Positions 1 to 49,115 of a stretch of 58,062 bases of DNA are shown piece by piece. A model generated the notes under the pieces. It saw only the letters and a list, made by a program, of their open reading frames with translations, was not told where the DNA came from and did no database searches. Origin of the DNA: a virus. The stretch lies in IMG/VR virus record IMGVR_UViG_3300029120_000017. One strand, written 5' to 3'. The position numbers and the translations under genes are program-made. Each line of letters starts with the position of its first letter. Position 1 is the stretch's first letter.

Positions 1-99
1 TCTAACGTTGCTTGCCTTGCATATTTGGTGGCCCTTGCATCAGAAAGTTTTCTTAATGATGCCCCAAAGGTATCATATTGCGACCTTGCCGACTGAACT
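1..99. repeat. 99-bp terminal direct repeat identical to 57964-58062 (circular-assembly overlap or terminal redundancy); unique genome length 57,963 bp
   Basis: First 99 bases (tctaacgttgcttgcc...gccgactgaact) recur exactly as the last 99 bases of the window. Confidence 0.95.
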
Positions 100-3041
100 T
101 CTTTTAGTTTCTCTGTTATCTCCTTAATGCTTTCAACGCTAAGATTTTTTCCGTTTCTGATGATGGATTGCAATTTGGCTTCCAACTCGTCCAGCATTGT
201 TTTTGTCATCTTTGAAAGGTCGCCAAAGACGGCCTCCCAGTCAAGATTATTCTTCATCTGGTCGAAAGTCAGCTCCTGCAACGATTTTTCGTATTCCTTT
301 TTGCTTTTCTTGTAGACAGGAGAGTTTTGGTCAAGGCCAGAAGATTCCATCGCAAATTTATCTTCCAGTGCCTTCCGCTTTTCCAAGAATGTGCCATAGG
401 AGGATAGATAATCATTCCATTCCTGCCTGTAGCTCTCTGTGTCTGAAAGCTGCCGTTTGGCATCATCCAGGGATTTTTGAATTTCTATCTTACGTTCGCC
501 TTCCGCTGTCTTTAATTGCTTTTCTAAAAACTCTATATCGTTTTTTAATTCCTTGATTTTGTTCGCCCTATCTCTTTGCGTTTTGTAATATTTGTCAAGA
601 ATCTTATCGACAGCATCCTCTTCGCTTTTTGCAGCATTGGCAGATATTGCTTTCGCCATAGCTTCATAGTCGAATTTTATTTTTGGCTGAGTTTTCAAAA
701 CATATTCTTCCCATTGTTTAAGATTCCACTTTCCCTTGTCTGTATTTTCCCATGTGGCTTCATTGTTTGAGTTGCTCGCATTTATATGTTTAAACTTCTC
801 CAGCTCTCTTGCTTTTTTAGCAATATCTTGTAACCATTTGTCGTTTTCTGCCATTTGCTGGTCTCGCTGACGTTTAATGCTATCCAGCTCTTTTTCTCCT
901 TCATTTGTGATAAGTTCGTTTCTTAGGTTATAGATTTCCTTCAGTTTGTCGTTATGCTTGTTCTCGATGCCTTCAAGATATTCGCTGATTTTCTGACGGA
1001 TTTCGGCAAGTCTTTCAGCAGCGGATTTCCCAGTATCTTTATTATTATCTCCATCACTTTCACCTTCACCATTTTTATTGAAGCCCCCATCATTGAATAA
1101 CTTCTCGGCATCTTCAATCAGTTTTTGATAATCCAGCATGAAACCATTATATCTCCTCATTGCGGCATCTCTCAACGCGGCCTCTCCATTCATTGCGTTG
1201 CGTGCTTCTTCGGCTACCTCTGTGTCTGATTTTTTCCAGTCAGTCTTCTTGCCAGTTGTGAGGTCTTTATAATCTTGATAATGATACAATCGGTACTCCC
1301 AACCTTTGCTGTTGCGGTCATGGATAAGTGCCTCTTGAAGCGATTGCACAGCAATGTTAAACAATGCCGTTGCCTTAATTCTTAGCTTCATAGATTCAAT
1401 AAACTTATCAGAACCTTTATTGAAGAGGTTTTCTGCATCGGCAGCATTTTTGATTGATACGCCTAATCCGTCAAATTGGCTTTTGTTATCTTTTAGGAAC
1501 TTATCTAATTCCTTGGATTTTCCTTTGACTTTCTCATATTTATTCTTCAATGTTTCAAAGGTCACGATATTTTTGGCAATCTCCTTATCGCTATTGGCAT
1601 ATTCATTACGTAGAGATTCTTGCGCCCTCGCATTATCCTCCGCAACCTTTTTCATCGTCTTTTCTTCATCTGTTAATTCGGTCATCTTATTGTAAATATA
1701 TGTAGCCGCAGCAACGACAGCGCTAATTGCGGCCAACACCCAACCGATTACAGGAATTGACTTGATGGCAAGTTTGACAGCCTTTAATGCGGTAACGAAT
1801 CCCCATGTTGCGCCAGTCTGAGCAACGGTTGCGGCCGTCTCAACTGATTGAGTCGCAGTTTGCGCGGCAGTCGCGGCGGTATTCTTGGCCAGTTCTGCAT
1901 TAACGGCTGCTAAAGCGGATGCCTTCAGCGCATCCCACATCGTTGAAATCTTAACGGCAGCACCTAACGTTTGCTGAACGCCCATAGAAATACTCATTAC
2001 TGCCTGTAGCTTCGTTTGTATCTCCATGAGTTTCTTTTGGTCTTTGGTGAATAAGCCTGCAACGCCCATGTACGTTGTCATTGCACCTGTCACGCCTTGA
2101 ATACCTGTGGCAAGCATACCAAAGGAGTTTGAGGCAAGACTTTTTCCAGAAACGGCAAAACTAACCTTGTTGAAGGCTGCTTGCAATTTATTAGCTTCAT
2201 TAACAGCCCTTCCAAATTCAGCCGTATTTTGTTTTCCCGACAAAATAAGTTCTGCAACGGCCTGCCTTGCGTTGCGCAATTGTGTACGTAGAGCAGTAGT
2301 CTTGCTTGATGCGTTGCCTGCTTCGTTTGCAAACTGAGCCATCCGTTGTTTGCTTTGCTCCAAATTTGCACTTGTTTCGGCAATCGCATTGCTAATGTTT
2401 TTTATCTTATCCCTCGTTTCGACAAGGTCTTCCGAATTATACTCCAGTCTTCTTTCTTTTGACTGCTGACCTGCTGCGGTTGATGGCTTAGTATCTTCAA
2501 TTCTTGAACGCGCCTTTTTAAGACGTTCCTCTTTTTCATAGAGTGATTCTAATTGCGTGTTTAATCGTTTCAGAATTGATTCGTAAGCCTTCACGTCTTC
2601 CTGCGCTTCCTTAAAAGCAGAAGATGTTCCTGCCTTGGTTGTAGCATTTCCAAGATTATCAAATTCTGTTTTCGTTCGTTGTGCGGCCTCGCCTTGGGTA
2701 TTAAGCCCTCTTGTTACTTCCTCCAGTTTCGCCTTTAATTCAGTGTTCTTGCTGAGGAGAGAATTAACTTGCTCTTGCAATTCGTTAAATTGCCCACTGG
2801 TATTCCCGACACCGATAGATGAGGAAAGAGCACTCAACTTTTGGCCGCTTGCATCAATAACGGCAGCAAGTTCTTCAACGACTTTCTTCACAAATTGAAA
2901 GCCATCGGCCATTTCGTTTGTCGCCTTTTCGGATGCAGATTGCATTTCACGAATTTTGGCGACAAATTCATTCGCTCCCGTCTCTATATCTTTTCCGTTG
3001 ATTACCGCTGATACGCTAAGTACGTCATTATTTTCTGCCAT
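1..3041 (-). CDS. tail tape measure protein, N-terminal part (about 1013 codons); continues in frame at 58062->56418 across the circular junction, 1528 aa in total
   Basis: ATG at 3041 (MAENNDVLSVSAVINGKD...). No complete minus ORF starting at 3041 is in the track, so this frame has no stop down to base 1. A/Q/K/E-rich coiled-coil-like sequence plus hydrophobic segment IPVIGWVLAAISAVVAAATYIY. Frame arithmetic joins it to ORF 56418-57713 once the 99-bp overlap is removed. Confidence 0.8.
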   Translation of the reverse strand, partial: MAENNDVLSVSAVINGKDIETGANEFVAKIREMQSASEKATNEMADGFQFVKKVVEELAAVIDASGQKLSALSSSIGVGNTSGQFNELQEQVNSLLSKNTELKAKLEEVTRGLNTQGEAAQRTKTEFDNLGNATTKAGTSSAFKEAQEDVKAYESILKRLNTQLESLYEKEERLKKARSRIEDTKPSTAAGQQSKERRLEYNSEDLVETRDKIKNISNAIAETSANLEQSKQRMAQFANEAGNASSKTTALRTQLRNARQAVAELILSGKQNTAEFGRAVNEANKLQAAFNKVSFAVSGKSLASNSFGMLATGIQGVTGAMTTYMGVAGLFTKDQKKLMEIQTKLQAVMSISMGVQQTLGAAVKISTMWDALKASALAAVNAELAKNTAATAAQTATQSVETAATVAQTGATWGFVTALKAVKLAIKSIPVIGWVLAAISAVVAAATYIYNKMTELTDEEKTMKKVAEDNARAQESLRNEYANSDKEIAKNIVTFETLKNKYEKVKGKSKELDKFLKDNKSQFDGLGVSIKNAADAENLFNKGSDKFIESMKLRIKATALFNIAVQSLQEALIHDRNSKGWEYRLYHYQDYKDLTTGKKTDWKKSDTEVAEEARNAMNGEAALRDAAMRRYNGFMLDYQKLIEDAEKLFNDGGFNKNGEGESDGDNNKDTGKSAAERLAEIRQKISEYLEGIENKHNDKLKEIYNLRNELITNEGEKELDSIKRQRDQQMAENDKWLQDIAKKARELEKFKHINASNSNNEATWENTDKGKWNLKQWEEYVLKTQPKIKFDYEAMAKAISANAAKSEEDAVDKILDKYYKTQRDRANKIKELKNDIEFLEKQLKTAEGERKIEIQKSLDDAKRQLSDTESYRQEWNDYLSSYGTFLEKRKALEDKFAMESSGLDQNSPVYKKSKKEYEKSLQELTFDQMKNNLDWEAVFGDLSKMTKTMLDELEAKLQSIIRNGKNLSVESIKEITEKLKEVQSARSQYDTFGASLRKLSDARATKYARQATL

Positions 3042-3045
3042 TGTT

Positions 3046-3725
3046 TTAGTTCATTAAATTCATGAAAAAATTATTGCAATTGTCTTTGATTTGACTTGCT
3101 GTCTGCAAGACTTTCTTTCCTCCTTTGCTTGTAGGTTGGTTCTTGCAAGGACTTTCGCCTTCTTCTTCATCAAATGGTTTTATACCTGGAATCGCTCTGT
3201 TGAGTAAAAGGATGTTGATGTAACTTCGCTTGAATACAACTTCATTGTACGACATTCTAAAGTACTTCATTACACCGCCAATCAATCCCCACGGGCTATC
3301 GCTTCTTTCGTATTCGTTGTTGTCTGACTGCACCCTTTTAGGAAAGTTATACTTTGCAAAAAAAAACTTGCATCAAACGAGAGTGAAGCGTATTGCAATA
3401 GCTCATTGTATTTCTTCATCGTCATGCGTTTGCGGATGAATCTGCCAAATATCTTTCTCATCAGTCTGGAACGGAAAACTATAATTGGTGTGATTTCATT
3501 TGCGTTTTTTACGTCTTTGAACATTGAGAAAACTTTCTGATATGGATTAAATTCACCTTCAATATTTATTTCTTCAATATCACCAATCTTTTCACCGATT
3601 TGCCATATCTGCGCCAAAGTCATCGGCCTAACCAAGAATGGAATCATACCGATAAAAACAAAAATTGGTCTCTCTGTTATTGCTCCTGCTGTGCTTTTTT
3701 CTTCACTTTTATTCATAACTGCCAA
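3046..3725 (-). CDS. tail assembly chaperone, programmed -1 frameshift fusion product (gpGT-like)
   Basis: Frame of 3282-3725 joins the -1 frame of 3046-3333 at the T9 run. The -1 frame is open from the run (FAKYNFPKRVQSDNNEY...) to the stop at 3046, 4 nt before the tape measure ATG. Confidence 0.6.
3282..3725 (-). CDS. tail assembly chaperone (gpG-like, zero-frame product)
   Basis: 147-aa ORF directly upstream of the tape measure gene; contains the slippery T-run near its 3' end. Confidence 0.6.
   Translation of the reverse strand: MAVMNKSEEKSTAGAITERPIFVFIGMIPFLVRPMTLAQIWQIGEKIGDIEEINIEGEFNPYQKVFSMFKDVKNANEITPIIVFRSRLMRKIFGRFIRKRMTMKKYNELLQYASLSFDASFFLQSITFLKGCSQTTTNTKEAIARGD
3358..3366 (-). 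promoter_or_regulatory. slippery site for -1 ribosomal frameshift (T TTT TTT within a T9 run on the coding strand)
   Basis: A9 on the plus strand. In the zero frame it reads AGT TTT TTT TTG; a -1 slip gives an open frame to 3046. Confidence 0.6.
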
Positions 3726-6927: not shown

Positions 6928-7506
6928 CTATTTTATAAGATTGAAAAATTCATTACGCAATTGTGCATCATTTTTAAAAGCTCCTACAAGGTATGATGAT
7001 TTCATTTTGCCTTTTTTCTTTGCTCCACGCATAGACTTGCATAAATGTTCGCCCTCCATTACAAGAGCGACACCAAGAGGTGGATATTTAGATTTAAGAG
7101 CATCAGAGAGAATGTCTACAATTTCTCGTACAAGTCTTTCCTGTATTTGTAATTTTGCTGCACAATAATCTACAACGCGACCAATTTTAGAAATTCCAAG
7201 AATCCGACCTTTAGGATTGGGGATGTAAGCGAACCAGTAGCGGCCAAAAAATGGCATCATGTGATGTTCACACATTGAATAGAAGTCGCCTTCATCTATA
7301 ATCATATTTTCATAAGTTATGCCATCTTTCCCATTTTCGAATGTTGTTATTTTCGGTTTTTGTGAAGCATCGTAACCTCTGAATATTTCATTATACATTC
7401 TGGCTATTCTATCGGGCGTGCCTTTCAATCCTTCTCTGTTTACATCTTCCCCAATTAAAGATAAAATGCCTTTTATATGGTTTTCTATTTGTTCTTTCTT
7501 ATTCAT
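6928..7506 (-). CDS. folE: GTP cyclohydrolase I (FolE)
   Basis: IGEDVNREGLKGTPDRIARMY and CEHHMMPFFG...GISKIGRVVDY...QIQERL motifs; ATG 7506 overlaps the queE stop as ATGA. Confidence 0.9.
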   Translation of the reverse strand: MNKKEQIENHIKGILSLIGEDVNREGLKGTPDRIARMYNEIFRGYDASQKPKITTFENGKDGITYENMIIDEGDFYSMCEHHMMPFFGRYWFAYIPNPKGRILGISKIGRVVDYCAAKLQIQERLVREIVDILSDALKSKYPPLGVALVMEGEHLCKSMRGAKKKGKMKSSYLVGAFKNDAQLRNEFFNLIK

Positions 7507-8090
7507 CTTACATTTATAATTTTCTGCGTCTGTAATGAAATCGCCCATTGTGGGTGAGAAAGGCAATAATTTACAACACCCTTGATGTTGTTTTCTGTTT
7601 TTTCTTTATCTTTCAAATCACATGGTTGCAAGTAATAATTATCAGCAATAATCCTTTTATACTTATCCATGCAAGTTTTTTCGGCATCGAATACAACTTT
7701 TAATTCATCAATATGCTCTAAGGCAATATTCGCTTGATTGCAATATTCAAACTTTGGCGAGCATGTTATCCAATTTGCAAAAGAAAGTGCCTTATTGTTT
7801 CGCGTGCCATTTGTTTCAATATGAATATATTTTCCTTCTTCACATAACATGAGCATGAATTTTTCTGTTATCTGCAAAGTAGGCTCGCCGCCTGTCAGAA
7901 CAACATGCTTTGTCGGATATTTGATAATTTCTTGAATTATCTCTTCATCTGTGTACTCTTTATACGATTCGTGCTTTGTATCGCAAAAAGGACATTTTAG
8001 ATTACATCCAGCAAAGCGAATAAATACACAAGGAGTTCCAGTAAAAGCACCTTCACCTTGTATTGAATAAAATATTTCGTTAATCCTCAT
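7503..8090 (-). CDS. queE: 7-carboxy-7-deazaguanine synthase (QueE, radical SAM)
   Basis: N-terminal EIFYSIQGEG...FIRFAGCNLKCPFCDT cluster motif, 195 aa. Confidence 0.9.
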   Translation of the reverse strand: MRINEIFYSIQGEGAFTGTPCVFIRFAGCNLKCPFCDTKHESYKEYTDEEIIQEIIKYPTKHVVLTGGEPTLQITEKFMLMLCEEGKYIHIETNGTRNNKALSFANWITCSPKFEYCNQANIALEHIDELKVVFDAEKTCMDKYKRIIADNYYLQPCDLKDKEKTENNIKGVVNYCLSHPQWAISLQTQKIINVR

Positions 8091-8096
8091 TTTCTT

Positions 8097-8426
8097 TTAT
8101 TTTTCATAGATTGCGGTATTACCCTCACTTTCTTGTACAATTGCTTTATAGCACATTGGTATCTGCTCTACAATCCATTTTGCAATATTTTCTGCTGTTG
8201 GATTGAAGGGTAACAGCTCATTAAAATTTCCATGGTCAAGAAATCCATGAATTTTATTCTTTACATGCTTAAAGTCAATAACCATGCCATCAGAATTAAG
8301 ATTTTCCGCTTTGCAGAAAACGGTCACAATCCAATTATGACCATGCAAATTTTCGCATTTGCTTTCATAAGAAAGATTGAGGTGATGACATCCTGCAATC
8401 TCCATTCGTTTTGTTACGTAGTACAT
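8097..8426 (-). CDS. queD: 6-carboxy-5,6,7,8-tetrahydropterin synthase (QueD)
   Basis: 109 aa T-fold protein with CHHL...LHGHNW metal-site motifs, adjacent to queE. Confidence 0.85.
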   Translation of the reverse strand: MYYVTKRMEIAGCHHLNLSYESKCENLHGHNWIVTVFCKAENLNSDGMVIDFKHVKNKIHGFLDHGNFNELLPFNPTAENIAKWIVEQIPMCYKAIVQESEGNTAIYEK

Positions 8427-8437
8427 ATTTTATTTAT

Positions 8438-10036
8438 TAAAGTTTCGCAAGTGAAAATTCACAAGCGTGATTTAACGTAATTTTGGAATAAAAAAGGCTC
8501 TGAAGTTTGTATAACTCACAGAAAATGAGTATCTTTATAATCGCTAAACAATAAAGATAAAACTTCAAAGCCGTGAGCAAAGATACAAAAATTATTTCAG
8601 ATCTGCGAAGCTTTTTCGCAAAGAATAACGATAATCGTGCAATTAAGTGCATTATGGGTGTGATGGAACATATAAATATACGCTCCAGCCAGATTGGAGT
8701 AGAGAAGAAAGAGAACTGCAAGTTCACCACTTTGCAGGTACTCAACCTCCTCATGCTCTTCCCGTTCTTCGTAGTCAAGAATGCGAGTCGATACTCCAAC
8801 TCGTCCTTGAGTAAATTGTTCAATTGTGATAAAGACATGTTCTATCGTTTTATGAATGATGGCAACGTCAAGTGGCGCAAGTTACTATATGCAATGAATC
8901 TTCAGCTGATAAAGAAGATATCAAGCAGCACAACTGTTCATCATAACAAGCCAGTTTGTTTGATTATTGATGATACTGATGCACCTAAGACTGGTATGAC
9001 GACCGAACTCATAGGAAGAATCTGGTCTCATGTTCATCAAAAGAGCATCCTTGGTTATAAGTGTCTGACCATGATGTTGTCCGATGGCGTTAGCCAGCTC
9101 TTTCTCGATTTCTCTCTTCATGGTGAGGAGGGAAAGGACAAGCAAAAGGTTCAGGGACTTACTGCTAAGCAACGCAAAGCTCGCTATACCGAGGACCACG
9201 AAGGGCAAGCGGTAAAAGAGCGTGTGGATGAATATCTGATGAAGAAGACAGACAAGGCCATAGATATGGTCAAGTATGCCATCAAGCGAGGTGTTCGCTT
9301 TGATTACTTGCTCGTAGATAGCTGGTTTACAAACACTAAGCTTGTGCGTTTCATTTCCGGCAGACATATCAAGTGTCACCTGTTGGGCATGATTAAACTG
9401 GGCAAAACCAACTATGCAACGAAGCATGGTAAGATGAATGCCAAGCAAATCATCAAGCACCTGCAAAAGGAAAAGGCATGCAAACACAACAAAATACTTC
9501 GTTGTACCTATTGTACAATGGACGTTAAGTTGGATGGTGTGCCAGTCCGTTTGTTCTTTTGCAAACGAGGACGCAAGGGAAACTGGAATGGGTTGTTGAC
9601 CACAGACCTTTCTCTTAGCTTCCTTGAAGCGTATCGTATTTATGCCAGACGATGGGCTACCGAAGTTGCATACAAGGATTGTAAGACCTTGCTGAACTTT
9701 GGCAAATGCCAGTCTGTACATTTTGCCGCTCAAATTGCTAGCTTCACTTTGACAATGATGCAGTATAACATCTTGTGTACAGTGAAGAGATTTGAAGCGT
9801 ATGAAACCATCGGTGGTCTCTTTACAGAGGTTACCAATGACACTCTCGAGTTGTCCGTAACGGACAAGATATGGGCTATTATTTTGGACTTCGTTCTGGA
9901 GGCTGCAGAGCGTTACTCTATAGATGCCACAGAGTTACTGGCAGATTTCATCGAAAGTAATCCTGTTGCCCATACGCTACGTAATATGTATATTTATAAA
10001 CAAGCAAGTTGATATTTATTCACTTGCGAAACTTTA
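8438..10036 (+). mobile_element. IS4-family insertion sequence, apparently intact
   Basis: Perfect 18-bp terminal inverted repeats taaagtttcgcaagtgaa (8438-8455; reverse complement at 10019-10036). 8-bp direct repeat TTATTTAT at 8430-8437 and 10038-10045. Single DDE transposase ORF inside. Confidence 0.9.
8573..10012 (+). CDS. IS4-family DDE transposase
   Basis: 479 aa with CLIIDDTD, YLLVDSWF and YRIYARRWATEVAYKDCK (Y-R-E-K) signature blocks. Confidence 0.9.
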   Translation: MSKDTKIISDLRSFFAKNNDNRAIKCIMGVMEHINIRSSQIGVEKKENCKFTTLQVLNLLMLFPFFVVKNASRYSNSSLSKLFNCDKDMFYRFMNDGNVKWRKLLYAMNLQLIKKISSSTTVHHNKPVCLIIDDTDAPKTGMTTELIGRIWSHVHQKSILGYKCLTMMLSDGVSQLFLDFSLHGEEGKDKQKVQGLTAKQRKARYTEDHEGQAVKERVDEYLMKKTDKAIDMVKYAIKRGVRFDYLLVDSWFTNTKLVRFISGRHIKCHLLGMIKLGKTNYATKHGKMNAKQIIKHLQKEKACKHNKILRCTYCTMDVKLDGVPVRLFFCKRGRKGNWNGLLTTDLSLSFLEAYRIYARRWATEVAYKDCKTLLNFGKCQSVHFAAQIASFTLTMMQYNILCTVKRFEAYETIGGLFTEVTNDTLELSVTDKIWAIILDFVLEAAERYSIDATELLADFIESNPVAHTLRNMYIYKQAS

Positions 10037-10037
10037 G

Positions 10038-10925
10038 TTATTTATAATAATCTTGATTTCCACATATATCCTGATAGGATTTCTTTAGCATCGTTATGTC
10101 TAAAACTAAGGCATTTAAGTTACTTTGCTCGTAATTAAACGATAGTAGTTTTTTGTATTTTTCTTCACCAATTAATTGAATAATCTTTTCTGTTTTTATA
10201 TTGCGTATATGTCTCTGTTTAATAAAGCCATAACGAACCGATGAAAGCCAACTTGTAGAATCAGCAGAAGTGCAGAACGTATTTTGCTTTAGCAGCTCTT
10301 TTTCTGTGCATCCTAAAAGATGAACGTCAATTGTTGGTTTTCTTTTCTTAATATAACGAGCTATCTTGCCTACATAATTACTTTTTCCAGCAAATCTTAG
10401 CTCTGGAACTGAAATAGCAATATATTCTGAATAATCAATCAATCTATCAAGCCCCTTCATGCCATCTTCAAGGTGAAACACATTGATAATGCGATTTGAT
10501 TTCGGCAAATCCTTTCGCATACGCTTACGAAATTCCCATGCTGCATCAACTCCTAAAACTTTTTGACAGTCTATTTCTACAACGGTTGCACCATTATTGC
10601 AAGCGAGCGTGAACTCTACAAGACGGTCATACCATTTATTCATTAGTGCTGCATCCTTTTTGCCTTTCATTGCCCCAAACATCAGCGTAAAAAGTCCACT
10701 ATCCTGTATTACGTGCTTGCAATTACTTGATAAATGTCGCAGATATTTGTAGTCAATATCTTCAATATTATTCCTTGATTTAAGAAGTCTACTAACAAAG
10801 GGATATGCGGTGTAAAGAAAATAATTAACACCAAGCGTATGTATTATCTGATATTGGACTAATTTCTCCATACTCGCAAAATGCACCTTTATATTATCTG
10901 GTAAGTGTAGCGCCTCCATAACCAT
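10038..10925 (-). CDS. dpdA: DpdA-like DNA guanine transglycosylase (TGT superfamily)
   Basis: 295 aa with VIQDSGLFT, VHLLGC and TSADSTSW blocks resembling the DSG / hLlG / DSxxW motifs of DpdA/TGT enzymes; lies in the deazaguanine gene cluster. Confidence 0.7.
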   Translation of the reverse strand: MVMEALHLPDNIKVHFASMEKLVQYQIIHTLGVNYFLYTAYPFVSRLLKSRNNIEDIDYKYLRHLSSNCKHVIQDSGLFTLMFGAMKGKKDAALMNKWYDRLVEFTLACNNGATVVEIDCQKVLGVDAAWEFRKRMRKDLPKSNRIINVFHLEDGMKGLDRLIDYSEYIAISVPELRFAGKSNYVGKIARYIKKRKPTIDVHLLGCTEKELLKQNTFCTSADSTSWLSSVRYGFIKQRHIRNIKTEKIIQLIGEEKYKKLLSFNYEQSNLNALVLDITMLKKSYQDICGNQDYYK

Positions 10926-11220
10926 CCTCCCTTACCGTTACAGAATTTGCATTAAACTTTATCAAAATCCATTCGGCAATACTTTCACATGACATAGTTT
11001 TAAATTTGCATGGTTTGCCGAATTGAGAGTTTAATGCTCGTTCTATTTCTTGTTGTTGAGTTATAATTTCAATTTCACGTTCATTGTGTGCTACTTCAAA
11101 GGCGCAATCAATAACAAATACGTGGCGATGAATAGATGATAAAAAATTGCATTCTTCTGGAGCACAAGGATAATAATGAAATCCTTCTACCTCATTGTGA
11201 GTTAATACGTATCTTTTCAT
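10894..11220 (-). CDS. second QueD/PTPS-like T-fold protein, divergent
   Basis: 108 aa. His15, His31 and His33 (GFHYYP...SIHRHVF) are spaced like the QueD zinc triad. Otherwise divergent from the canonical queD at 8097-8426. Confidence 0.45.
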   Translation of the reverse strand: MKRYVLTHNEVEGFHYYPCAPEECNFLSSIHRHVFVIDCAFEVAHNEREIEIITQQQEIERALNSQFGKPCKFKTMSCESIAEWILIKFNANSVTVREDGYGGATLTR

Positions 11221-11807
11221 TTTATTTTTACTCCTTCGTATAATTTTGTTATTGTATTCAACTCCTTTTTTATATCTTCAATTTTCTCTGAATAAGTTTG
11301 AGGGATTTCAATTTGCAAGATGATGGAATTATTATGTTGTTCATCTTCTTTTGCTTTATTTTCTTCTTTCTCAAACATATCATCCAAATCAATATCTTGC
11401 TTATCTTTTAAGAATTCACATTCAAGGCCAAAATCCAACAATTCTTCCAAATTCCAATCATTAGCAAGCAAATCCCAACTATTCTGACCGAAAGCAATAT
11501 TGTCTTTTTGGATGTATGCCCGCAATTTCTTTGCGCTCGTGCCCGTTGGCAATACTTTAACAGGAGCATCTTTGTAGCCAAGCTCTTTCATGGCCCTGTA
11601 ACGCATATTGCCAAGAATTACGACAAGTTCTCCGTTATTATCGTATGCAACAATTTCGCGTAATTGAAGCATTTCTGGGTCATCCTCAATGCTTTTTTTA
11701 AGTGCTTCATAACGCTCATCCTTGATAAAACGAGGATTCTTTGGTACATCCTTAATTTGTCCAGTGTTAAGGTGCAAATCAGAAATTTTTATTGTTTTCG
11801 TCTGCAT
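11217..11807 (-). CDS. ParB-like N-terminal (ParBc) domain protein
   Basis: 196 aa; IKISDLHLNTGQ...PKNPRFI...VILGNMRYRAMKELG pattern typical of ParB/Srx-fold domains; acidic C-terminal half. Confidence 0.65.
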   Translation of the reverse strand: MQTKTIKISDLHLNTGQIKDVPKNPRFIKDERYEALKKSIEDDPEMLQLREIVAYDNNGELVVILGNMRYRAMKELGYKDAPVKVLPTGTSAKKLRAYIQKDNIAFGQNSWDLLANDWNLEELLDFGLECEFLKDKQDIDLDDMFEKEENKAKEDEQHNNSIILQIEIPQTYSEKIEDIKKELNTITKLYEGVKIK

Positions 11808-11842
11808 TTTTATTACTGTTATTAGTTTATTCCCATATCTGT

Positions 11843-12010
11843 TTACTTTTGACGATAAAACAATGAGGGATTATCAAGCACACTGTCAAGTATACACATT
11901 CCCTGTTCTTTTGCCTTGATTTCCTCTTTGAGTTTATCAAGTTCCTCACATGTGAGTTGGCTTTCGGTCAAACCGTAATCATCCAACATTTGCTTTATTT
12001 TATCTTCCAT
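11843..12010 (-). CDS. small hypothetical protein (55 aa, below the ORF-track cutoff)
   Basis: ATG 12010 to TAA 11843 (MEDKIKQMLDDYGLTESQL...); fills the gap in the co-directional gene array. Confidence 0.4.
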   Translation of the reverse strand: MEDKIKQMLDDYGLTESQLTCEELDKLKEEIKAKEQGMCILDSVLDNPSLFYRQK

Positions 12011-12027
12011 GTTGCAAAGTTATATAA

Positions 12028-12636
12028 TTAGTTATTCTTTTTACTATAATCCCAACCGTATTTCTTGGCAAGTATTTTCATAACCTTGTGGAAATGTGTT
12101 ACATCTGCTCTTGCAATGTTACTTTCATTCCACTTTGTTTGATTAAGATAATTGTATCCTTGTTTATACACTATTCTATCCGCATCAGCAAATGCCTTTT
12201 TCGCTTCATCTGCTGAAACACCCCAACCTCCCTTTGGGCGTTTTATCGAAAATGTATATGTTGGGGTTACTGCTCGCATTTCTTTTGCATTTACCATAAT
12301 GGCAGACCTTATATCATCACTTGAAAACGAGTTGCCAATACGTCTAATACCTCTTTCACCAAGTGAACGAGGGTGATTGTGGGTTAATATACTATTTATT
12401 GGTATCTTTTTAGAGTCAAATTTCACCTGTGCGCCCTTGCCACCTATTGAAGAAACAATATCGCCCTTGGAGTTGAAGACGTGCAATGTTTCGTCTTTGT
12501 TGCGTCTGTATTTCTGCTCAATGCCGACAATATTCTTTACCATCTTTGCAGTATATCCCTTTTCGGTTGCTCCCTTGGAGCTGCCAGAACTCCCACCCTT
12601 ACCGATTGATGTTATGCCTCCACTGTTTCTCCCCAT
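12028..12636 (-). CDS. hypothetical protein, Gly/Ser-rich N-terminus; weak JAB/RadC-like THNHP...SSDD signature
   Basis: 202-aa ORF tightly packed between the two ParB-like genes; motif spacing does not match the canonical JAMM pattern. Confidence 0.6.
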   Translation of the reverse strand: MGRNSGGITSIGKGGSSGSSKGATEKGYTAKMVKNIVGIEQKYRRNKDETLHVFNSKGDIVSSIGGKGAQVKFDSKKIPINSILTHNHPRSLGERGIRRIGNSFSSDDIRSAIMVNAKEMRAVTPTYTFSIKRPKGGWGVSADEAKKAFADADRIVYKQGYNYLNQTKWNESNIARADVTHFHKVMKILAKKYGWDYSKKNN

Positions 12637-12639
12637 AGC

Positions 12640-13731
12640 TTACTTCTTTTTGGCGTTGATAAAATCAGCAATATATAGCAATCCATGCTTTCGGCAAAAG
12701 TCTTGCACTTCCCTACCTCCACCATAGATAATCAGATTTGGGCGTTCAAGCCCGCTTATCTCCTGTGCTACCTGTAAATCAGATTTCAAGCTCTCCATCC
12801 AGCCATCAAGTCCACGTGTAAAGAAAGCATTGTAGCCTTTTGGAATACCCATTTTGTTGTATTCTATAAATTTATGCGACACATTCAAATCTGCATAGAC
12901 CTTTATACCGCATTCCTGTAAATATCTCGCCAACCATCTTTTCTTATAAATTAGTTGTATTCCCCACGCGATAGGTGTTTGGTCGTGACAACTGCAATTT
13001 GGCTCTACGACAGCCTTACATCCGCTTGTAAGCAATTTTATTGGGTCTTTGAATAATGCTTCAAATCTATAATCGTCAACATAGAAGTGATATGTGACAA
13101 CGTCCTTTCTCAGTCTGCTGTTTGCACCCCAAGGCGATAATGGCAATTCCAATTTTCCTGCTTGCATTTCCTTCAGCAAATTTGGTATTTCAAAGTCATT
13201 ATCACTTTCGTAGAGTACATCTTTAAACATAGAGCGATAGAAGTTTTCTTTTTCTTCTTCGCTATTGTTTTCAACATTGCTGCCTTCTGTCTCATTCTCT
13301 TGGCTTGAAATATCCTCCGCCTCCTTTAATTGGCTGACTTTCTCCTTTGGAAATTCAATCCCAATGAAATCGAAATCTACATCCTTGAAGGCATCATCTA
13401 TCTTCAAGGCATCAAAATTCCACTCTCCATTCTCCTTATTGTCTCGCAATATTAATTCGTTTTCTTCATCCTTGCTTAAATCACGATATAAAATAGTGGG
13501 AAGTTCATTGATTTTCAGTTTTCGCGCAGCCTTCAATCGCTGATTGCCACACAAAACAATCAATCGTCCATCCCTCTCAGTAAGAGCCAATGGTCTATGT
13601 TCCCAAAAGCCATTTATGGTAATGGAATCAACCAACCTATCCATCTCTTCCTTCTTAATTTTTCGCGGATTATTAGGAAGCGGATGTAAGTCAGCCACCT
13701 TTCTATATGTGATTTCTTTTTCTGCTTTCAT
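12640..13731 (-). CDS. ParB-like N-terminal domain fused to a DUF4417-like C-terminal domain
   Basis: 363 aa. N-terminus VADLHPLPNNPRKI...VLCGNQRLKAARKL (ParBc-like), acidic linker, C-terminal about 190 aa (YHFYVDDYRFE...WGIQLIYKKRWLARY...) recognised by eye as DUF4417-like. Confidence 0.55.
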   Translation of the reverse strand: MKAEKEITYRKVADLHPLPNNPRKIKKEEMDRLVDSITINGFWEHRPLALTERDGRLIVLCGNQRLKAARKLKINELPTILYRDLSKDEENELILRDNKENGEWNFDALKIDDAFKDVDFDFIGIEFPKEKVSQLKEAEDISSQENETEGSNVENNSEEEKENFYRSMFKDVLYESDNDFEIPNLLKEMQAGKLELPLSPWGANSRLRKDVVTYHFYVDDYRFEALFKDPIKLLTSGCKAVVEPNCSCHDQTPIAWGIQLIYKKRWLARYLQECGIKVYADLNVSHKFIEYNKMGIPKGYNAFFTRGLDGWMESLKSDLQVAQEISGLERPNLIIYGGGREVQDFCRKHGLLYIADFINAKKK

Positions 13732-22787: not shown

Positions 22788-23225
22788 TCAGAAAGGCAAA
22801 TCATCGCTACCGACATATAAATTATTACCGTTTACATATTCTGGCGATAATACTTTCTTTGTTTCTTCGCTCTGATTTTGTGGTTGTGCAAAATCAGATT
22901 GCGGATTGCTCGTTTTTGCAACATTAAGCAATTGCAAATCAAAAACGTTTAGTTGCAGGGCAAATTTTGGTATTCCTTCTTTTGATACATAAGCATTACC
23001 GTCAACGCTGCCTTCAAGTAATACATACGTTCCTTTTTTTAAATATGGAAGTAACTTGCTATTGTCACCGCCTTTTATGCAGGAGATAAATTTTGTTATT
23101 TCCTTATCTTTCAATTTTCTGTTCACTGCCACCGAAAAGACAGTAAAAGCACCACTCTGTGAAGTTTTTTGTTCAGCGTCATTTGTCAAATGTGCAAGAC
23201 ATTGGTATCTTTCGTTTCCTATCAT
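22788..23225 (-). CDS. ssb: single-stranded DNA-binding protein
   Basis: 145 aa, OB-fold-like N-terminus, Q/P-rich linker, C-terminal SDDLPF tip. Confidence 0.85.
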   Translation of the reverse strand: MIGNERYQCLAHLTNDAEQKTSQSGAFTVFSVAVNRKLKDKEITKFISCIKGGDNSKLLPYLKKGTYVLLEGSVDGNAYVSKEGIPKFALQLNVFDLQLLNVAKTSNPQSDFAQPQNQSEETKKVLSPEYVNGNNLYVGSDDLPF

Positions 23226-23226
23226 T

Positions 23227-24126
23227 TTATTTCAGTTTTATTAAAATACTACTTGAAGTTTTTGTTTTCGTGATGTATTGCTCATACATCTGCGGATAAT
23301 CATTTTTGAATGCCTTTGAATCAAAACATAATCGATAAGTTTCTGGCTTTCTTGTTATGGAAATTCTCTGTCCGTCATATTTCTTTATATCATGTTGCAT
23401 CATAATAGCCAAGATTCCTTCTTTGAGCTTATCGTATTGCGCCTTATAAAATTCCATCGCTTCTTTATATTCAATTAGCGCTGCCTCCGCGCGATTGATG
23501 TCTGGCATCATTGCTTCGTCAACGGTGGTGACTGACAACGCTTCTTCCGTATAAAGCAACTTCTTGACATCTTCAATAGATTTTCGCTCTACTTCAACGA
23601 CCTTATATTTGTCTTCCCTAAACCAAAGAGCATAGAGTTTTTTGACCTCTACATCTGGATTGATAAGGTTAAAGAAATAAGCATAAATAGACAATTGCCA
23701 ACTTACGTATTCCTCATTAAGATGGTACGTGGTCTTCACATCACCGAGAATAACGCCATCATCTTCTACATAAACCTTATCTATTGCTGAAGCATATTTT
23801 TCGCCGTCAGTGATAAGATATTCGCTTTGCAGATGGTTGGCAAGGAAAGGAAATTCCGTCTGTGCCTTCATGTAGTTTTGAAGTTCTTGGCATTCATTCG
23901 TTATCAATCCTACTTCATCATACAATTCAAGTATATTGTGAATCCTCGTGCCTCTTGTCGCTGCACGTTGCAACACCTCTTCGGGAACATCTTTATACTC
24001 ATCGGGGAAGGCTCGTTCTTTGAGCCTTCCCGTGATTCCGTGCAGTACTTCTCCATCCTTGGTGCAATAGGTGTGGCTCTCTGCATCAAACAGGATTCCG
24101 CTGTCATTCAGTTTTATCTTCTTCAT
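23227..24126 (-). CDS. PD-(D/E)xK family exonuclease (recombination partner of Erf)
   Basis: 299 aa; IDKVYVEDDGVILGDVKTTY...WQLSIYAYF (D...D-x-K...Q..Y) pattern; position between erf and ssb. Confidence 0.6.
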   Translation of the reverse strand: MKKIKLNDSGILFDAESHTYCTKDGEVLHGITGRLKERAFPDEYKDVPEEVLQRAATRGTRIHNILELYDEVGLITNECQELQNYMKAQTEFPFLANHLQSEYLITDGEKYASAIDKVYVEDDGVILGDVKTTYHLNEEYVSWQLSIYAYFFNLINPDVEVKKLYALWFREDKYKVVEVERKSIEDVKKLLYTEEALSVTTVDEAMMPDINRAEAALIEYKEAMEFYKAQYDKLKEGILAIMMQHDIKKYDGQRISITRKPETYRLCFDSKAFKNDYPQMYEQYITKTKTSSSILIKLK

Positions 24127-24226
24127 CGTCCTCGTCTTTATTGGCTATATGTTGTGCATATACAACAACGGTTAACATCGCCACCATAATCAGCATGGCG
24201 ATAATACAAAATGCAATTCTTATCAT
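24104..24226 (-). CDS. 40-aa single-TM peptide with acidic tail (putative)
   Basis: ATG 24226 overlaps the erf stop as ATGA; MIRIAFCIIAMLIMVAMLTVVVYAQHIANKDEDDEEDKTE; below the ORF-track cutoff. Confidence 0.3.
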   Translation of the reverse strand: MIRIAFCIIAMLIMVAMLTVVVYAQHIANKDEDDEEDKTE

Positions 24227-24873
24227 TTCGGGTATTTTTTAGATGCCTCTTGAACGGCCTCACTAAATCTCGGATTGGATTGCAAGTCCTTATTCTCGTT
24301 CCAAATCGTTGTAAGTGTCTTTCTGCTTCTCGCGTGGCTTATATCTTGCAGGAGCAACATCAAACGCTCTTCATCGACCTGCGGCGCTTGCTGTTTCACT
24401 TGCTTTGGCGCTTGTTTTGGCTTGGCCTGGCTCACCGTTGCTGTTGTACTCTGTTGTGCAGCTTGTACCTGTTGCGCGTATTCATTCGTATCTGCATCTT
24501 TAGTGTCGTCAATAGCAAAGAGATTACCAAGCGCATATTTCTTGGCATAGCTCATTGCAGCACCTGTAATCTGCGAACCATCCATACCTTTTTTCGTTTC
24601 TTCCTCGCGTGCCATACCGCTTGCACTCTCGCTTGTTTTCCCATCCGAAATCGTCACCGTGCATTCTACATAGATGCGATTTAGATGTTCGCTGATTTTC
24701 GATTCCGTCACAAGCGTCAAACCCATCTCGCGGAGGAAGGGTTTTGTCGCGGCCAATATGCTTTCTGCGCTTCTATAACGATAGTTACCAAACTTGTTAT
24801 ACAAGTCCTTCGGCGCTTCTAACTTTGTCTGAATCAGATTCAGTTTTTCGTGTAATGTCATTTTATTTTCCAT
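24223..24873 (-). CDS. erf: Erf-family single-strand annealing protein
   Basis: ATG 24873 (MENKMTLHEKLNLIQTKL...); FGNYRYRSAESILAATKPFLREMGL and GAAMSYAKKYALGNLFAIDD blocks typical of ERF proteins. Confidence 0.75.
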   Translation of the reverse strand: MENKMTLHEKLNLIQTKLEAPKDLYNKFGNYRYRSAESILAATKPFLREMGLTLVTESKISEHLNRIYVECTVTISDGKTSESASGMAREEETKKGMDGSQITGAAMSYAKKYALGNLFAIDDTKDADTNEYAQQVQAAQQSTTATVSQAKPKQAPKQVKQQAPQVDEERLMLLLQDISHARSRKTLTTIWNENKDLQSNPRFSEAVQEASKKYPK

Positions 24874-24883
24874 TGTGTTTGAA

Positions 24884-24924
24884 TTTAAAAAGCAAAGCCG
24901 TCCGTACTTGCAGGTACGAACGGC
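24884..24924 (-). terminator. hairpin plus T-tract (rho-independent terminator-like) immediately upstream of erf
   Basis: Stem 24897-24907 / 24914-24924 (one mismatch), followed on the minus strand by tttgcttttt. Confidence 0.45.
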
Positions 24925-25077
24925 CACCTTAGTATGAATTATGAGTATGACAAGCGGAAGAACTAATTATCCCAATCCGTTGCGACCGCCCCTGTTAACT
25001 ATAGTCTCCTACCATTAACAAGTTGAATATTTGATAGAAATATCTTTCTTATATATAGCATAAAATAAACGTAATTG

Positions 25078-28380: not shown

Positions 28381-28417
28381 ATCCACTGGCAAAATTAATT
28401 GTCAGTGGATTTTTTTA
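28381..28417. terminator. bidirectional hairpin terminator between the convergent membrane-protein and integrase genes
   Basis: 10-bp stem 28381-28390 / 28401-28410 flanked by an A-run and a T7 run. Confidence 0.6.
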
Positions 28418-29633
28418 CATAGTCTATTACTTTCTTGATTGCTTGGTCAACCTTCTTTTCATTCCTTCTTATATATATATCTGCGATTTGGTATTGTGGC
28501 TTGTGCCCAAGAGCAGCATCAATAACAGCATCTGGAATATCAATGTCTGCGGCGATAGTCGCCCATGTGTGTCTTGCCCAATATGTCGTAAGATGTGGAA
28601 ACAGAGGCTTGAATATTTTTTCTTTCTTCACTCGTCCATATCTGTTTCTCACATTAATAATGTCTGTCTTTCCTATTTTCTGTAAGTTCTTGTTTATCGT
28701 TCTAACGAAAGACCTTTTATCCTCATGTGTCTCTCCGAAGTTAAGCAGTTTCTTTTCTCCGCGATATTTTCGTATGAGCTTCATTGCTTCGTTTGGAATT
28801 TTAAGACTGCAAAGAACTCCTGTCTTACTCCTTCGGTATGTTATTCTCTGCTCTTCGTTTGGGTGCGGCAAATCAAGCAAATCAACCATGTTTATTCCTG
28901 CGCAATAAAAGGAGATTAGGAAAATGTCAAGATATTTTTGCTGATAATCTTCGCATTTAAAATTCATCAGTGATAATAATTCCTTGATTGTCAAAGAGCG
29001 TTTTTCAGTCTGTTCAGATTTTATTCTGAATTTCCTGAATGGGTAAAATTCTTGTGCTACATAATCTTCACGAATTGCCTCGTTGAATAAGGCGCGAAGA
29101 TTGCGCAAATGAATGGAGCGCGTGTTTACTGAATTTCCTTTTGCCTGCATCCAAGTATCGAAATCGACTAACCATTTGTAATCAATCTCCTCAAATGATA
29201 AATTATCAATATCGCAATAATTGCCAATCTTAATTATTGTGCCTTCGTAAACCTCTTTTGTTCTATCTTTTGTCTTCCTTGAAATGAATATCTTGAAATA
29301 TTCTTTGATATAATGTGGCCGTTCTTCTTCTGTTTCTTCGCGAGGGTTTATTTGTTCACGTATATCTTTGGCCGTCATCTTGTCAAGATTCTTAGATGAA
29401 CTTAATAAGATGATTTGCATCCTAAGATATTCCAATTTCGATTTTAAAACTTGATTCAATCTTTTTGCCAGAGGAGTGTTAATAACCTCTCCGTTCAGCC
29501 ATTCCTCCTTTCTTAAATATACAGATGTCGGAATCATGGAGGATGTATTATTGTGCCGAATTACAATTTTTACACAATATTTTCCAGATTTATTTTTGGC
29601 CCTTGCATCGAGGTACAGATTAATTTTTGCCAT
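28395..29633 (-). CDS. int: tyrosine integrase
   Basis: ATG 29633 (MAKINLYLDARAK...); C-terminal ARHTWATIA...LGH...IYI catalytic-type motifs; next to attP. Confidence 0.9.
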   Translation of the reverse strand: MAKINLYLDARAKNKSGKYCVKIVIRHNNTSSMIPTSVYLRKEEWLNGEVINTPLAKRLNQVLKSKLEYLRMQIILLSSSKNLDKMTAKDIREQINPREETEEERPHYIKEYFKIFISRKTKDRTKEVYEGTIIKIGNYCDIDNLSFEEIDYKWLVDFDTWMQAKGNSVNTRSIHLRNLRALFNEAIREDYVAQEFYPFRKFRIKSEQTEKRSLTIKELLSLMNFKCEDYQQKYLDIFLISFYCAGINMVDLLDLPHPNEEQRITYRRSKTGVLCSLKIPNEAMKLIRKYRGEKKLLNFGETHEDKRSFVRTINKNLQKIGKTDIINVRNRYGRVKKEKIFKPLFPHLTTYWARHTWATIAADIDIPDAVIDAALGHKPQYQIADIYIRRNEKKVDQAIKKVIDYVKKSTDN

Positions 29634-29769
29634 TTGCACGGATTTTGCACGGTTCTACATTTTGATGGATTGCACGTGTTTTGCACGGATTTTCGGCAAA
29701 TTTCGGCATAATACGGCATAATACGGCATAAATTTATGGCTTTAACATTTGAATATAGAGACAAAATAA

Positions 29770-38026: not shown

Positions 38027-38929
38027 TTAGTTTTTACTTTCTTTGTTTTCTCCTCCAACAAGATTGATATTCGTTATTTCAATAACGTTCAAAAGACGCA
38101 TCGTAAACTCATGCCACTCTCGCTCGAAAGGAGCAACCATCTCGGGCGTGACGTGAATCTTATTCAGCGTACCAATGATGTTGACGATAAATCCTTTGAC
38201 GTTGACGGCCTCAAACATACCTTGGTCGTGCTTCATAAAGAACTCGTACAAGTCAATCCAACAAAGGCCCTTGAACACTACATCCTTAATGATGTTGGTT
38301 GTATGCGTCAGAGAATCTTTACGCATTCGGTAGGTGTAACCGATAGTGTCGGCATACGCAACCTTGTTAGCAAAGAACATCATCGGAATAATGGTCGGCG
38401 TGTCCTCGATGTAACGTCTATCGCTGTAAGGCACTTTGTTGCAGATTTCCTTGCGGATAATCTTGTTATTCATGAAGACAATTCGCTCACCCCAAAACTT
38501 GGCAACCTTGTCGCGGCCTTCCGTTACGCAATTGCCGTAAGAGGTGGCATCCCATGAGCCATCTTCTTTGAGGATTTTCACGCCGCCGCTGACAATATCC
38601 GCGCCCGTAGCATCGGCTCTCGCAAGCAGTCTCTTGACAAAATCAAGGTCAATGTAATCATCGCCATCAAGCGTCATTACATATTCTGCATTTGCGTAGT
38701 CAATGCCGCGTCTGCGCGACAGACCAGCGCCAACATTTTCGCTATTCTCCAAGAGCGTGATTCCCTTGATTCTTCTGAGGATGTCGAGTGTACCGTCTGT
38801 TGACTTATCTTCAACGACAATAACCTCACACTTCTCTGTCTGATTCAAGGCGCTTGCAACGCTCTGTTCGATATCTCTTTCAACATTGTATGCCGTAATA
38901 ACAATGGCACATCTGTACATCTTTTTCAT
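38027..38929 (-). CDS. family 2 glycosyltransferase (soluble)
   Basis: AIVITAYNVERDIEQSVASALNQT...VVEDKSTDGT...LDGDDY motifs; no C-terminal TM helices seen. Confidence 0.85.
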   Translation of the reverse strand: MKKMYRCAIVITAYNVERDIEQSVASALNQTEKCEVIVVEDKSTDGTLDILRRIKGITLLENSENVGAGLSRRRGIDYANAEYVMTLDGDDYIDLDFVKRLLARADATGADIVSGGVKILKEDGSWDATSYGNCVTEGRDKVAKFWGERIVFMNNKIIRKEICNKVPYSDRRYIEDTPTIIPMMFFANKVAYADTIGYTYRMRKDSLTHTTNIIKDVVFKGLCWIDLYEFFMKHDQGMFEAVNVKGFIVNIIGTLNKIHVTPEMVAPFEREWHEFTMRLLNVIEITNINLVGGENKESKN

Positions 38930-49085: not shown

Positions 49086-49115
49086 TTGCCTATAATGCTA
49101 AAAAAAATTATCGTT

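Follow-up and report, generated by a model that had tools for sequence, protein, structure and literature searches.

Viral DNA of 58,062 nucleotides from IMG/VR record IMGVR_UViG_3300029120_000017 (here called the window, meaning the whole stretch that was analysed) carries minus-strand genes for the synthesis of 7-carboxy-7-deazaguanine (CDG) and a gene for a DpdA-type DNA guanine transglycosylase, but has no queC. The locus raises the question of how such a pathway works without QueC, and which of the surrounding genes belong to it. Six genes, encoding a small ParB-like protein, DpdL, DpdA, QueD, QueE and FolE, form a cassette that probably replaces guanine of the phage DNA with 7-deazaguanine (dDG). 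The puzzle of the missing queC and the extra T-fold gene was already explained in 2023. What appears to be new, judged from sequence, is the pairing of the DpdL pathway with a divergent DpdA1-like enzyme and not with DpdA3, the apparent abundance of the pathway in temperate human-gut phages, a DpdA clade with a seemingly universal ParB-like partner, undescribed for phage systems, and what looks like a natural exchange of DpdL and QueC within one DpdA clade. Here we present the evidence for this assignment, together with the alternatives and a description of the genome.

DpdL as the probable replacement for QueC

The gene dpdL (10894..11220, minus strand) encodes a QueD-paralogous T-fold protein of 108 aa, a predicted CDG decarboxylase. 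Over 100% of its length it shares 42% identity (E 4e-17) with phiST CGPG_00067, which bears the name DpdL, and both proteins match phrog_17812 (7.7e-25 for the window protein). Its signature, LSSIHRHVF, fits the pattern LxxxHRHxF exactly, and this pattern is kept in all 81 related DpdL open reading frames (ORFs), which comprise 53 distinct sequences. Pfam and NCBIfam scans of the 108-aa protein gave no match. When a profile of the 53 distinct DpdL sequences was aligned with a QueD profile by hhalign, the probability was 86% (E 5e-6, 96 columns), with HRH placed on HGH, which confirms the preliminary description of this locus in its view of the gene as a second, divergent QueD-like one. Conserved positions in DpdL are H15, L27, H31, R32, H33 and F35; the three zinc-binding histidines (H15, H31, H33) are retained, a leucine replaces the catalytic cysteine, and R32, R48, E51 and C78 are conserved residues specific to DpdL.

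The Cellulophaga phage phiST has all guanine in its DNA replaced by dDG, at 302,000 per 10^6 nucleotides and with no dG (Cui, Hutinet et al., NAR 2023, PMC10516641). The same authors proposed that DpdL (CGPG_00067) is a QueD paralogue which decarboxylates CDG and in which LxxxHRHxF replaces CxxxHGH; they also found its gene in other phages with DpdA, FolE, QueD and QueE and without QueC, and reported that DpdL occurs with DpdAs other than DpdA3 as well (PMC10516641), so that DpdA3 may not be strictly required. By its sequence the 108-aa protein of the window is thus assigned as a DpdL that would take the place of QueC. The preliminary description had suggested a tailoring role for the extra T-fold protein and a base at the CDG level, or one tailored otherwise. 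The latter suggestion pointed in the right direction, and most genes had been identified correctly, although the explanation had already been published (PMC10516641); the T-fold protein is now assigned as a predicted CDG decarboxylase.

The genes for CDG synthesis, as first called from the letters of the minus strand, agree with family matches in Pfam and NCBIfam. The gene folE (6928..7566, minus strand) encodes GTP cyclohydrolase I, the enzyme of the first step, from GTP to dihydroneopterin triphosphate (H2NTP), and matches PF01227 (5.7e-55) and NF006826 (1.8e-58, above cutoff). Translation probably begins at the ATG at 7506, giving a protein of 192 aa and overlapping the stop codon of queE as ATGA; FolE of relatives is 193 aa long. 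The gene queE (7503..8090, minus strand) encodes a radical S-adenosylmethionine CDG synthase with matches to PF04055 (4.4e-16) and TIGR04508 (2.5e-40), the latter over the full length yet under the curated cutoff, and with the cluster motif CNLKCPFC. The gene queD (8097..8426, minus strand) encodes 6-carboxytetrahydropterin synthase (PF01242, 3.7e-25; TIGR03367, 3.1e-23); its canonical CxxxHGH motif reads CENLHGH, and C24, H28, G29 and H30 are kept across 49 QueD sequences from relatives.

The absence of QueC, likewise part of the preliminary description, held up in each search. Pfam scans of all substantial ORFs of the genome gave no match to a QueC, QueF, ArcS or tRNA-guanine transglycosylase (TGT) model. 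A QueC hidden Markov model (HMM), made from E. coli QueC and three phage QueCs, was run without filters against all six frames, where its best match had an E of 0.95, and the SGGxDS motif has zero occurrences anywhere in the window. As the window represents the complete, circular genome (see below), the whole phage is without QueC. If DpdL stands in for QueC, this absence is to be expected, and borrowing from the host is not needed as an explanation.

Related loci

For comparison, 89 loci encoding this DpdA were assembled (loci and contigs are cited by L numbers), and their ORFs were searched with the window proteins and with E. coli QueC. The usual order is ParB-like protein, DpdL, DpdA, an optional YhhQ/Vut_1 transporter, QueD, QueE, FolE, small terminase and large terminase. 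DpdL was found in 81 of the 89 loci and QueC in three (L053, L087, L088), with no co-occurrence. Five loci have neither; two of them are truncated at dpdA, and three consist of ParB, DpdA and the transporter, without synthesis genes. Every locus with QueD/QueE/FolE and with sequence upstream of dpdA has exactly one of DpdL and QueC. This exclusivity gives independent support to the replacement of QueC by DpdL, and it argues against the borrowing of host QueC, one of the explanations first offered for the locus, since related loci carry DpdL or a QueC of their own and never both.

The YhhQ/Vut_1 protein, a queuosine-precursor transporter, is encoded directly after dpdA in L007-L010, L017-L029, L035, L046-L048, L055, L056 and L064. 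In L048, L055 and L056 the module is reduced to ParB, DpdA and the transporter. A cultured relative, Faecalibacterium phage Roos (L002; PP479939), encodes ParB, DpdL, DpdA and the transporter, and no FolE, QueD or QueE was found in two stretches of it (17.6 of 54.3 kb). The gene content of phage Roos suggests that host-derived CDG can feed the DpdL pathway; the three loci without synthesis genes and phage Roos would be salvage-dependent versions of the module.

Two further observations concern nucleotide chemistry. FolE is a 320-aa protein in L009 (13429-14391) and L010 (13428-14390), and this product also gives a faint phosphoribosyltransferase-like match. In Synechococcus phage BUCT-ZZ01 the DpdL cluster holds a xanthine-guanine phosphoribosyltransferase (L169, 447-908). 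These findings hint that nucleotide-level handling of the base also occurs in some deazaguanine clusters.

The DpdA enzyme

The gene dpdA (10038..10925, minus strand) encodes a protein of 295 aa, annotated as a DNA guanine transglycosylase with a TGT fold, which matches phrog_887 ('queuine tRNA-ribosyltransferase') at 2.3e-18. A structure prediction had been suggested for it, and the AlphaFold2 (AF2) model obtained is confident (pLDDT 90.2, pTM 0.89). Foldseek ranks 1-36 in the PDB were all tRNA-guanine transglycosylases (E 1.5e-6 to 5e-5, TM ~0.6), and the best viral matches in BFVD include phage 'queuine tRNA-ribosyltransferases'. A search by fold was needed because PDB sequences yielded no TGT when searched with a profile HMM of the DpdA alignment; the Pfam TGT model PF01702 matched neither this DpdA nor ten distant relatives, and NCBIfam gave no match for the protein. 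Phage DpdAs are commonly too divergent for the Pfam TGT model. The family falls into 1,483 clusters when grouped at 90% identity and has 643 representatives at 50%, and none of the members checked had a Pfam match.

Invariant in 87 family members are D75 and F79 (QDSGLF), D119 (VExDCQ), H151, H202 and L204 (HLLG) and D222 (SADS). D75, F79, D119, H151, L204 and D222 are ordered like Asp95, Phe99, Asp130, His181, Leu236 and Asp256 of bacterial DpdA, an assignment that uses motifs and their order and no structural superposition. In Salmonella DpdA these residues are catalytically essential or bind the substrate (PMC10164549). The early classification of the 295-aa protein as DpdA-like therefore agrees both with the predicted TGT fold and with the presence of the active-site residues.

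DpdA of phage 9g belongs to the same PHROG, but it matches phrog_887 at 2e-98, versus 2.3e-18 for the window protein. An hhalign comparison of the two gave a probability of 66% (E 5e-5, 105 columns) and aligned H202 and the nucleophile motif around D222 with His196 and the CDSS motif of the 9g enzyme; tblastn with the window DpdA did not find phage 9g. Against DpdA3 of phiST, BLASTP gave an E of 0.023 over 29 aa and hhalign a probability of 1.9-2.6%, and the two enzymes fall into different PHROGs (887 versus 20335). Compared with 9g DpdA1 and phiST DpdA3, the enzyme thus seems to represent a divergent DpdA1-like clade.

One position tracks the presence of DpdL. M82 (QDSGLFTLMFG; codon ~10680-10682), seven residues past the catalytic Asp, does not vary among 81 DpdL-linked DpdAs or among those of the three salvage-only loci, and is Leu, Val and Val in the three QueC-linked loci. 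With just three QueC-linked loci this is a lead only, in which M82 would be a candidate determinant of the 7-substituent that the enzyme accepts.

A candidate ParB-like partner

Directly upstream of dpdL, a small protein of 196 aa with a ParB/Srx fold is encoded at 11217..11807 (minus strand). It matches phrog_17622 (1.4e-45) and ParB PHROGs (5.8e-11); its match to Pfam ParB_N (4e-4) is under the cutoff, and NCBIfam gave weak Noc/SbnI matches only. The protein has the motifs NPR and GNMRYRA, and family members share NPR, GN and DN. Its stop shares 4 nt with the start of dpdL, which itself runs into dpdA, so that dpdL overlaps both of its neighbours. The preliminary description had listed two ParB-N-domain genes, one of them fused to DUF4417; both were recovered, as this protein and as the 363-aa protein treated below.

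A ParB-like ORF stands directly upstream of DpdL/DpdA in 65 of the 68 loci with enough upstream sequence (jackhmmer), and of the remaining three, L048 and L056 have one detected by phmmer. Pfam misses the divergent ORFs of L058, L029 and L045, so an iterative local HMM was used, and divergent ParB-like ORFs were judged by eye. The ParB-like HMM had no match in phage 9g, in the phiST locus or in two other DpdL-bearing phages, and the PADLOC Dpd models gave no match at E <= 0.1 for DpdA or for either ParB protein. The two phage deazaguanine papers contain no mention of ParB, and none of the papers searched connects ParB with a phage DpdA.

Bacterial DpdA strictly requires DpdB, an ATPase of the ParB superfamily (PMC10164549), and dDG was not reconstituted in E. 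coli from dpdL and dpdA alone, so that further enzymes are possibly needed (PMC10516641). By synteny and by analogy, the 196-aa protein is plausibly the only true partner among the extra genes of the locus, a candidate NTPase helper that would be analogous and not orthologous to DpdB. A bolder proposal, which we advance tentatively and with more doubt than confidence, is that DpdAs of this clade may depend obligatorily on the ParB-like protein as a nucleotide-dependent partner, an independently arisen counterpart of DpdB and perhaps the missing component of dDG synthesis, and that dDG may be common in gut phages.

Proposed pathway and alternatives

In the pathway that we consider probable, FolE, QueD and QueE would convert GTP to CDG by the established chemistry of these families. 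DpdL would then remove the carboxyl group of CDG to give the free base 7-deazaguanine, a step that is predicted in the literature and supported by the exclusivity of DpdL and QueC. DpdA would exchange G in double-stranded phage DNA for 7-deazaguanine after replication, as its fold, active site and family suggest. The ParB-like protein, from its synteny, may serve as a nucleotide-dependent helper that loads DpdA on DNA or activates it, as DpdB does in bacteria. QueC would be unneeded, and its absence would be a defining feature of this type of pathway.

Several points weigh against this assignment. The decarboxylase activity of DpdL is a prediction, and heterologous expression failed (PMC10516641). 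The DpdA of the window is not of the DpdA3 type found in phiST, the only system with measured dDG, and the members of its clade are enzymes predicted from sequence. The 196-aa protein is not an orthologue of DpdB: it has GNMRYRA (of the GxxRxxA type), not DGQQR, and has no PADLOC match. Finally, an insertion sequence (IS) in this genome may silence queD, queE and folE.

It is unlikely that DpdA inserts CDG itself, with DpdL converting dCDG to dDG in place or with dCDG as the final base, a reading that needs no other genes and changes just the sequence of steps or the final product. Cui et al. considered that DpdA3 may insert CDG (PMC10516641), VH7D DpdA2 does so with low efficiency, and dCDG is known in one archaeal virus, but the structural model of DpdL in the former study suggested action on the free base (PMC10516641), dCDG is missing from phiST DNA, and the M82 pattern, on three QueC-linked loci only, hints at a DpdA pocket tuned to the product of DpdL.

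A further alternative concerns the IS. An IS4-family element of 1,600 bp (8438..10037, plus strand) lies between dpdA and queD. It encodes a transposase of 479 aa (8573-10012, plus strand; NF049925, 1.8e-112, 376 bits versus a cutoff of 250), is bounded by terminal inverted repeats of 18 bp that match perfectly (8438-8455 and 10019-10036) and is flanked by the 8-bp target-site duplication TTATTTAT at 8430-8437 and 10038-10045. The element is oriented opposite to the operon and was inserted where 3 nt separated the stop of dpdA from the start of queD. Both codons are preserved by the target duplication, and all six frames of the module are intact. At the empty site, L011, L012 and L014 align straight across with an 8-bp overlap, and in L003-L006 dpdA abuts queD. 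The insertion is simple and recent, and nothing was deleted. The module had been described as one minus-strand operon; its genes are indeed on the minus strand, but the plus-strand IS4 element, overlooked at that stage, splits dpdA from queD. Loss of a queC gene through the IS was considered and rejected, given the simple insertion with an intact target duplication and the IS-free relatives in which dpdA abuts queD.

By its position and opposite orientation, the 1.6-kb element may uncouple the CDG-synthesis genes from transcription of the operon. There is accordingly a small chance that the module of this genome is off or crippled, the DNA being unmodified or under-modified in a lineage that exists mainly as a prophage; an integrase is encoded, and recurrence of the IS-bearing genome would also be expected from vertical inheritance of a prophage. 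Against this stand the six intact frames with the preserved dpdA stop and queD start, the ~58-kb circle found in several samples, which fits an actively replicating phage, the possibility of read-through or of outward promoters borne by the IS, and the possibility that host-made CDG feeds DpdL, as in phage Roos. Around the IS, a scan for sigma-70 promoters and for terminators stayed at chance level, with a consensus ill-suited to Bacteroidota and uninformative on polarity.

That QueC of the Segatella host turns phage-made CDG into preQ0 (or ADG) for installation by DpdA, with DpdL in some other role, is very improbable: the use of host intermediates has been proposed for DpdA phages whose own pathways are incomplete, and characterised DpdA1 enzymes, which this DpdA resembles, insert preQ0-level bases, but relatives in need of preQ0 encode a QueC themselves and are precisely those without DpdL, while a strictly conserved and doubly overlapping DpdL would be left without a function.

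Comparison with known systems

Among the closest known counterparts is the DpdL system of phiST (PMC10516641), which shares folE, queD, queE, DpdL and a DpdA-family transglycosylase with the window and likewise has no QueC. The transglycosylases differ, DpdA3 (phrog_20335) in phiST and a phrog_887 DpdA in the window, with no detectable sequence similarity between them. Between dpdL and dpdA3, phiST has the unannotated gene CGPG_00066 (L001, 6320-6799), encoding a P-loop protein matching AAA_18 (9.4e-7) and not ParB-like; phiST thus also has an NTPase-like gene within its DpdL/DpdA pair, but one whose fold differs from that of the ParB-like protein of the window. phiST is a lytic marine phage, whereas the phage described here is a temperate gut phage.

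With phage 9g and the DpdA1 system of the Queuovirinae (Hutinet et al. 2019, PMC6884629) the window shares PHROG 887 and the clustering of dpdA with folE, queD and queE. Phage 9g differs in having Gat-QueC, making dG+ and lacking DpdL and any ParB-like ORF, and the identity of its DpdA to that of the window is very low.

The bacterial DpdA/DpdB system of Salmonella Montevideo (Gedara et al. 2023, PMC10164549) resembles the window in pairing a TGT-fold transglycosylase with a protein of the ParB superfamily, and the two DpdAs have the same active-site residues in the same order. DpdB is a dimeric SspE/DndB-like ATPase (80-95 kDa according to small-angle X-ray scattering and multi-angle light scattering, about twice the monomer) with DGQQR and a C-terminal helical domain, whereas the protein of the window has 196 aa. 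Bacterial Dpd inserts preQ0; the window phage is without dpdC-K genes.

The neighbouring ParB-DUF4417 cassette

Upstream of the ParB-like gene lie three further minus-strand genes. They encode a ParB-N and DUF4417 fusion of 363 aa (12640..13731; PF14386, 1e-52; phrog_940, 'nuclease', 1.5e-100 over the full length), a protein of 202 aa (12028..12636) and a 55-aa ORF (11843..12010). In the 363-aa protein, for which a structure prediction had been proposed, the N-terminal domain has a ParB fold, with Foldseek matches to Noc/ParB (E 1.6e-6, rmsd 2.4-2.6 A), and the AF2 model, moderate overall (pLDDT 68.6), gives a tentative DUF4417 fold at best. DUF4417 was considered as a cryptic DpdA-like barrel on account of weak TIM-barrel-like Foldseek matches and similar-looking motifs; this was rejected at an hhalign probability of 0.2%. 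The protein is an ordinary full-length member of the phage ParB-DUF4417 family (PF14386, phrog_940), with nothing to distinguish it; members usually lie just upstream of terminase, mostly in phages without deazaguanine genes. The 202-aa protein had no match in Pfam, PHROG, NCBIfam or PADLOC, and the 55-aa ORF none in the Pfam and NCBIfam scans.

The preliminary description had proposed the ParB-DUF4417 and 202-aa proteins as tailoring or targeting components, a role that the distribution of these genes does not support. Contig L173 encodes counterparts of the three, at 74%, 89% and 84% identity and in unchanged order, immediately upstream of terminase and without deazaguanine genes, whereas all three are missing from L013-L015, whose DpdA is 90-96% identical to that of the window. 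Bacteroides phage Versailles has a 73% identical ParB-DUF4417 protein just upstream of terminase and no DpdA or Que genes. The same arrangement, again without DpdA or Que genes, is found in L170-L172, whose protein occurs in 815 index blocks of the contig collection. Because the three genes are found beside terminase without deazaguanine genes and are missing from the module-bearing L013-L015, they are a separate neighbouring cassette and not parts of the pathway. The deazaguanine cassette looks like a six-gene insert between this ParB-DUF4417 cassette and the small terminase gene.

In phage Versailles, DUF4417 is followed by a 201-aa protein to which the 202-aa protein shows no similarity, the slot being variable, and in L003 the equivalent slot holds an ADP-ribosyltransferase. 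The 202-aa protein does match the C-terminus of proteins of 568-796 aa encoded downstream of terminase and portal (L063, 6894-9281; L065; L070), with which it shares the motif THNHP...IGNSFS and which also carry a metalloprotease-like HELGH motif. These large proteins are probably MuF-like minor-head proteins, and the 202-aa protein is a stand-alone copy of their C-terminal domain. Its position is a variable slot for cargo or effector genes.

Genome properties and host

The phage genome is a complete circle of 57,963 unique bp, the window ends (1-99 and 57964-58062) being an identical overlap of 99 bp; relatives read straight across the circular junction. A tape-measure frame of 1,531 codons spans the junction (56418-58062 joined to 1-3050), which is why the first 3 kb have no listed ORFs. 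The genome also encodes terminase, portal, capsid and lysis genes; no tRNA genes were found in it. Features of a temperate phage are a Bacteroidota-type tyrosine integrase (Phage_int_SAM_5 and Phage_integrase; 28395-29639) and an antirepressor-like gene (Bro-N/ANT; Bro-N/KilAC; 49086-49949). Another such feature is a recombination module, which consists of ERF (23227-24927) and a single-stranded DNA-binding protein (SSB; 22788-23225). In the midst of the tail and tail-fibre genes lies one for a family-2 glycosyltransferase (38027-38929; PF00535, 1.4e-28), which may act in host-surface (serotype) conversion.

Copies of the IS that are 99% identical at the protein level are present in multiple copies in Segatella copri (HDD04, HDD05, F3-48) and S. 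hominis, and thereby identify the host lineage of this temperate gut phage as Segatella (Prevotella) copri. A megablast search of GenBank phages with 20 kb of the window gave no match. An identical DpdA protein is encoded on eight contigs, six of them of ~58 kb and from different human gut metagenomes, and contig L174 has the same IS at the same place. The ~58-kb IS-bearing genome recurs in several human gut metagenomes and assembles as a circle in several samples, and this recurrence shows that the IS-bearing lineage persists.

Implications

For a temperate phage, having a DpdA hypermodification module implies that its DNA is unmodified while integrated. If the proposed pathway is correct, complete or high-level replacement of G by 7-deazaguanine would not be confined to marine Cellulophaga phages but would be widespread in temperate phages of dominant gut bacteria, and, under the bolder proposal above, dDG or a close relative would be common in gut phages of Segatella/Prevotella, other Bacteroidales and Faecalibacterium. 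This would have consequences for the evasion of restriction and CRISPR, and for enzyme cutting and nanopore reading of gut virome DNA. The ParB-like protein would be a concrete candidate component for reconstituting dDG synthesis, and the exchange of DpdL and QueC within one clade could be used to map the base choice of DpdA, for example at M82. The chemistry could be checked directly in a cultured relative, phage Roos.

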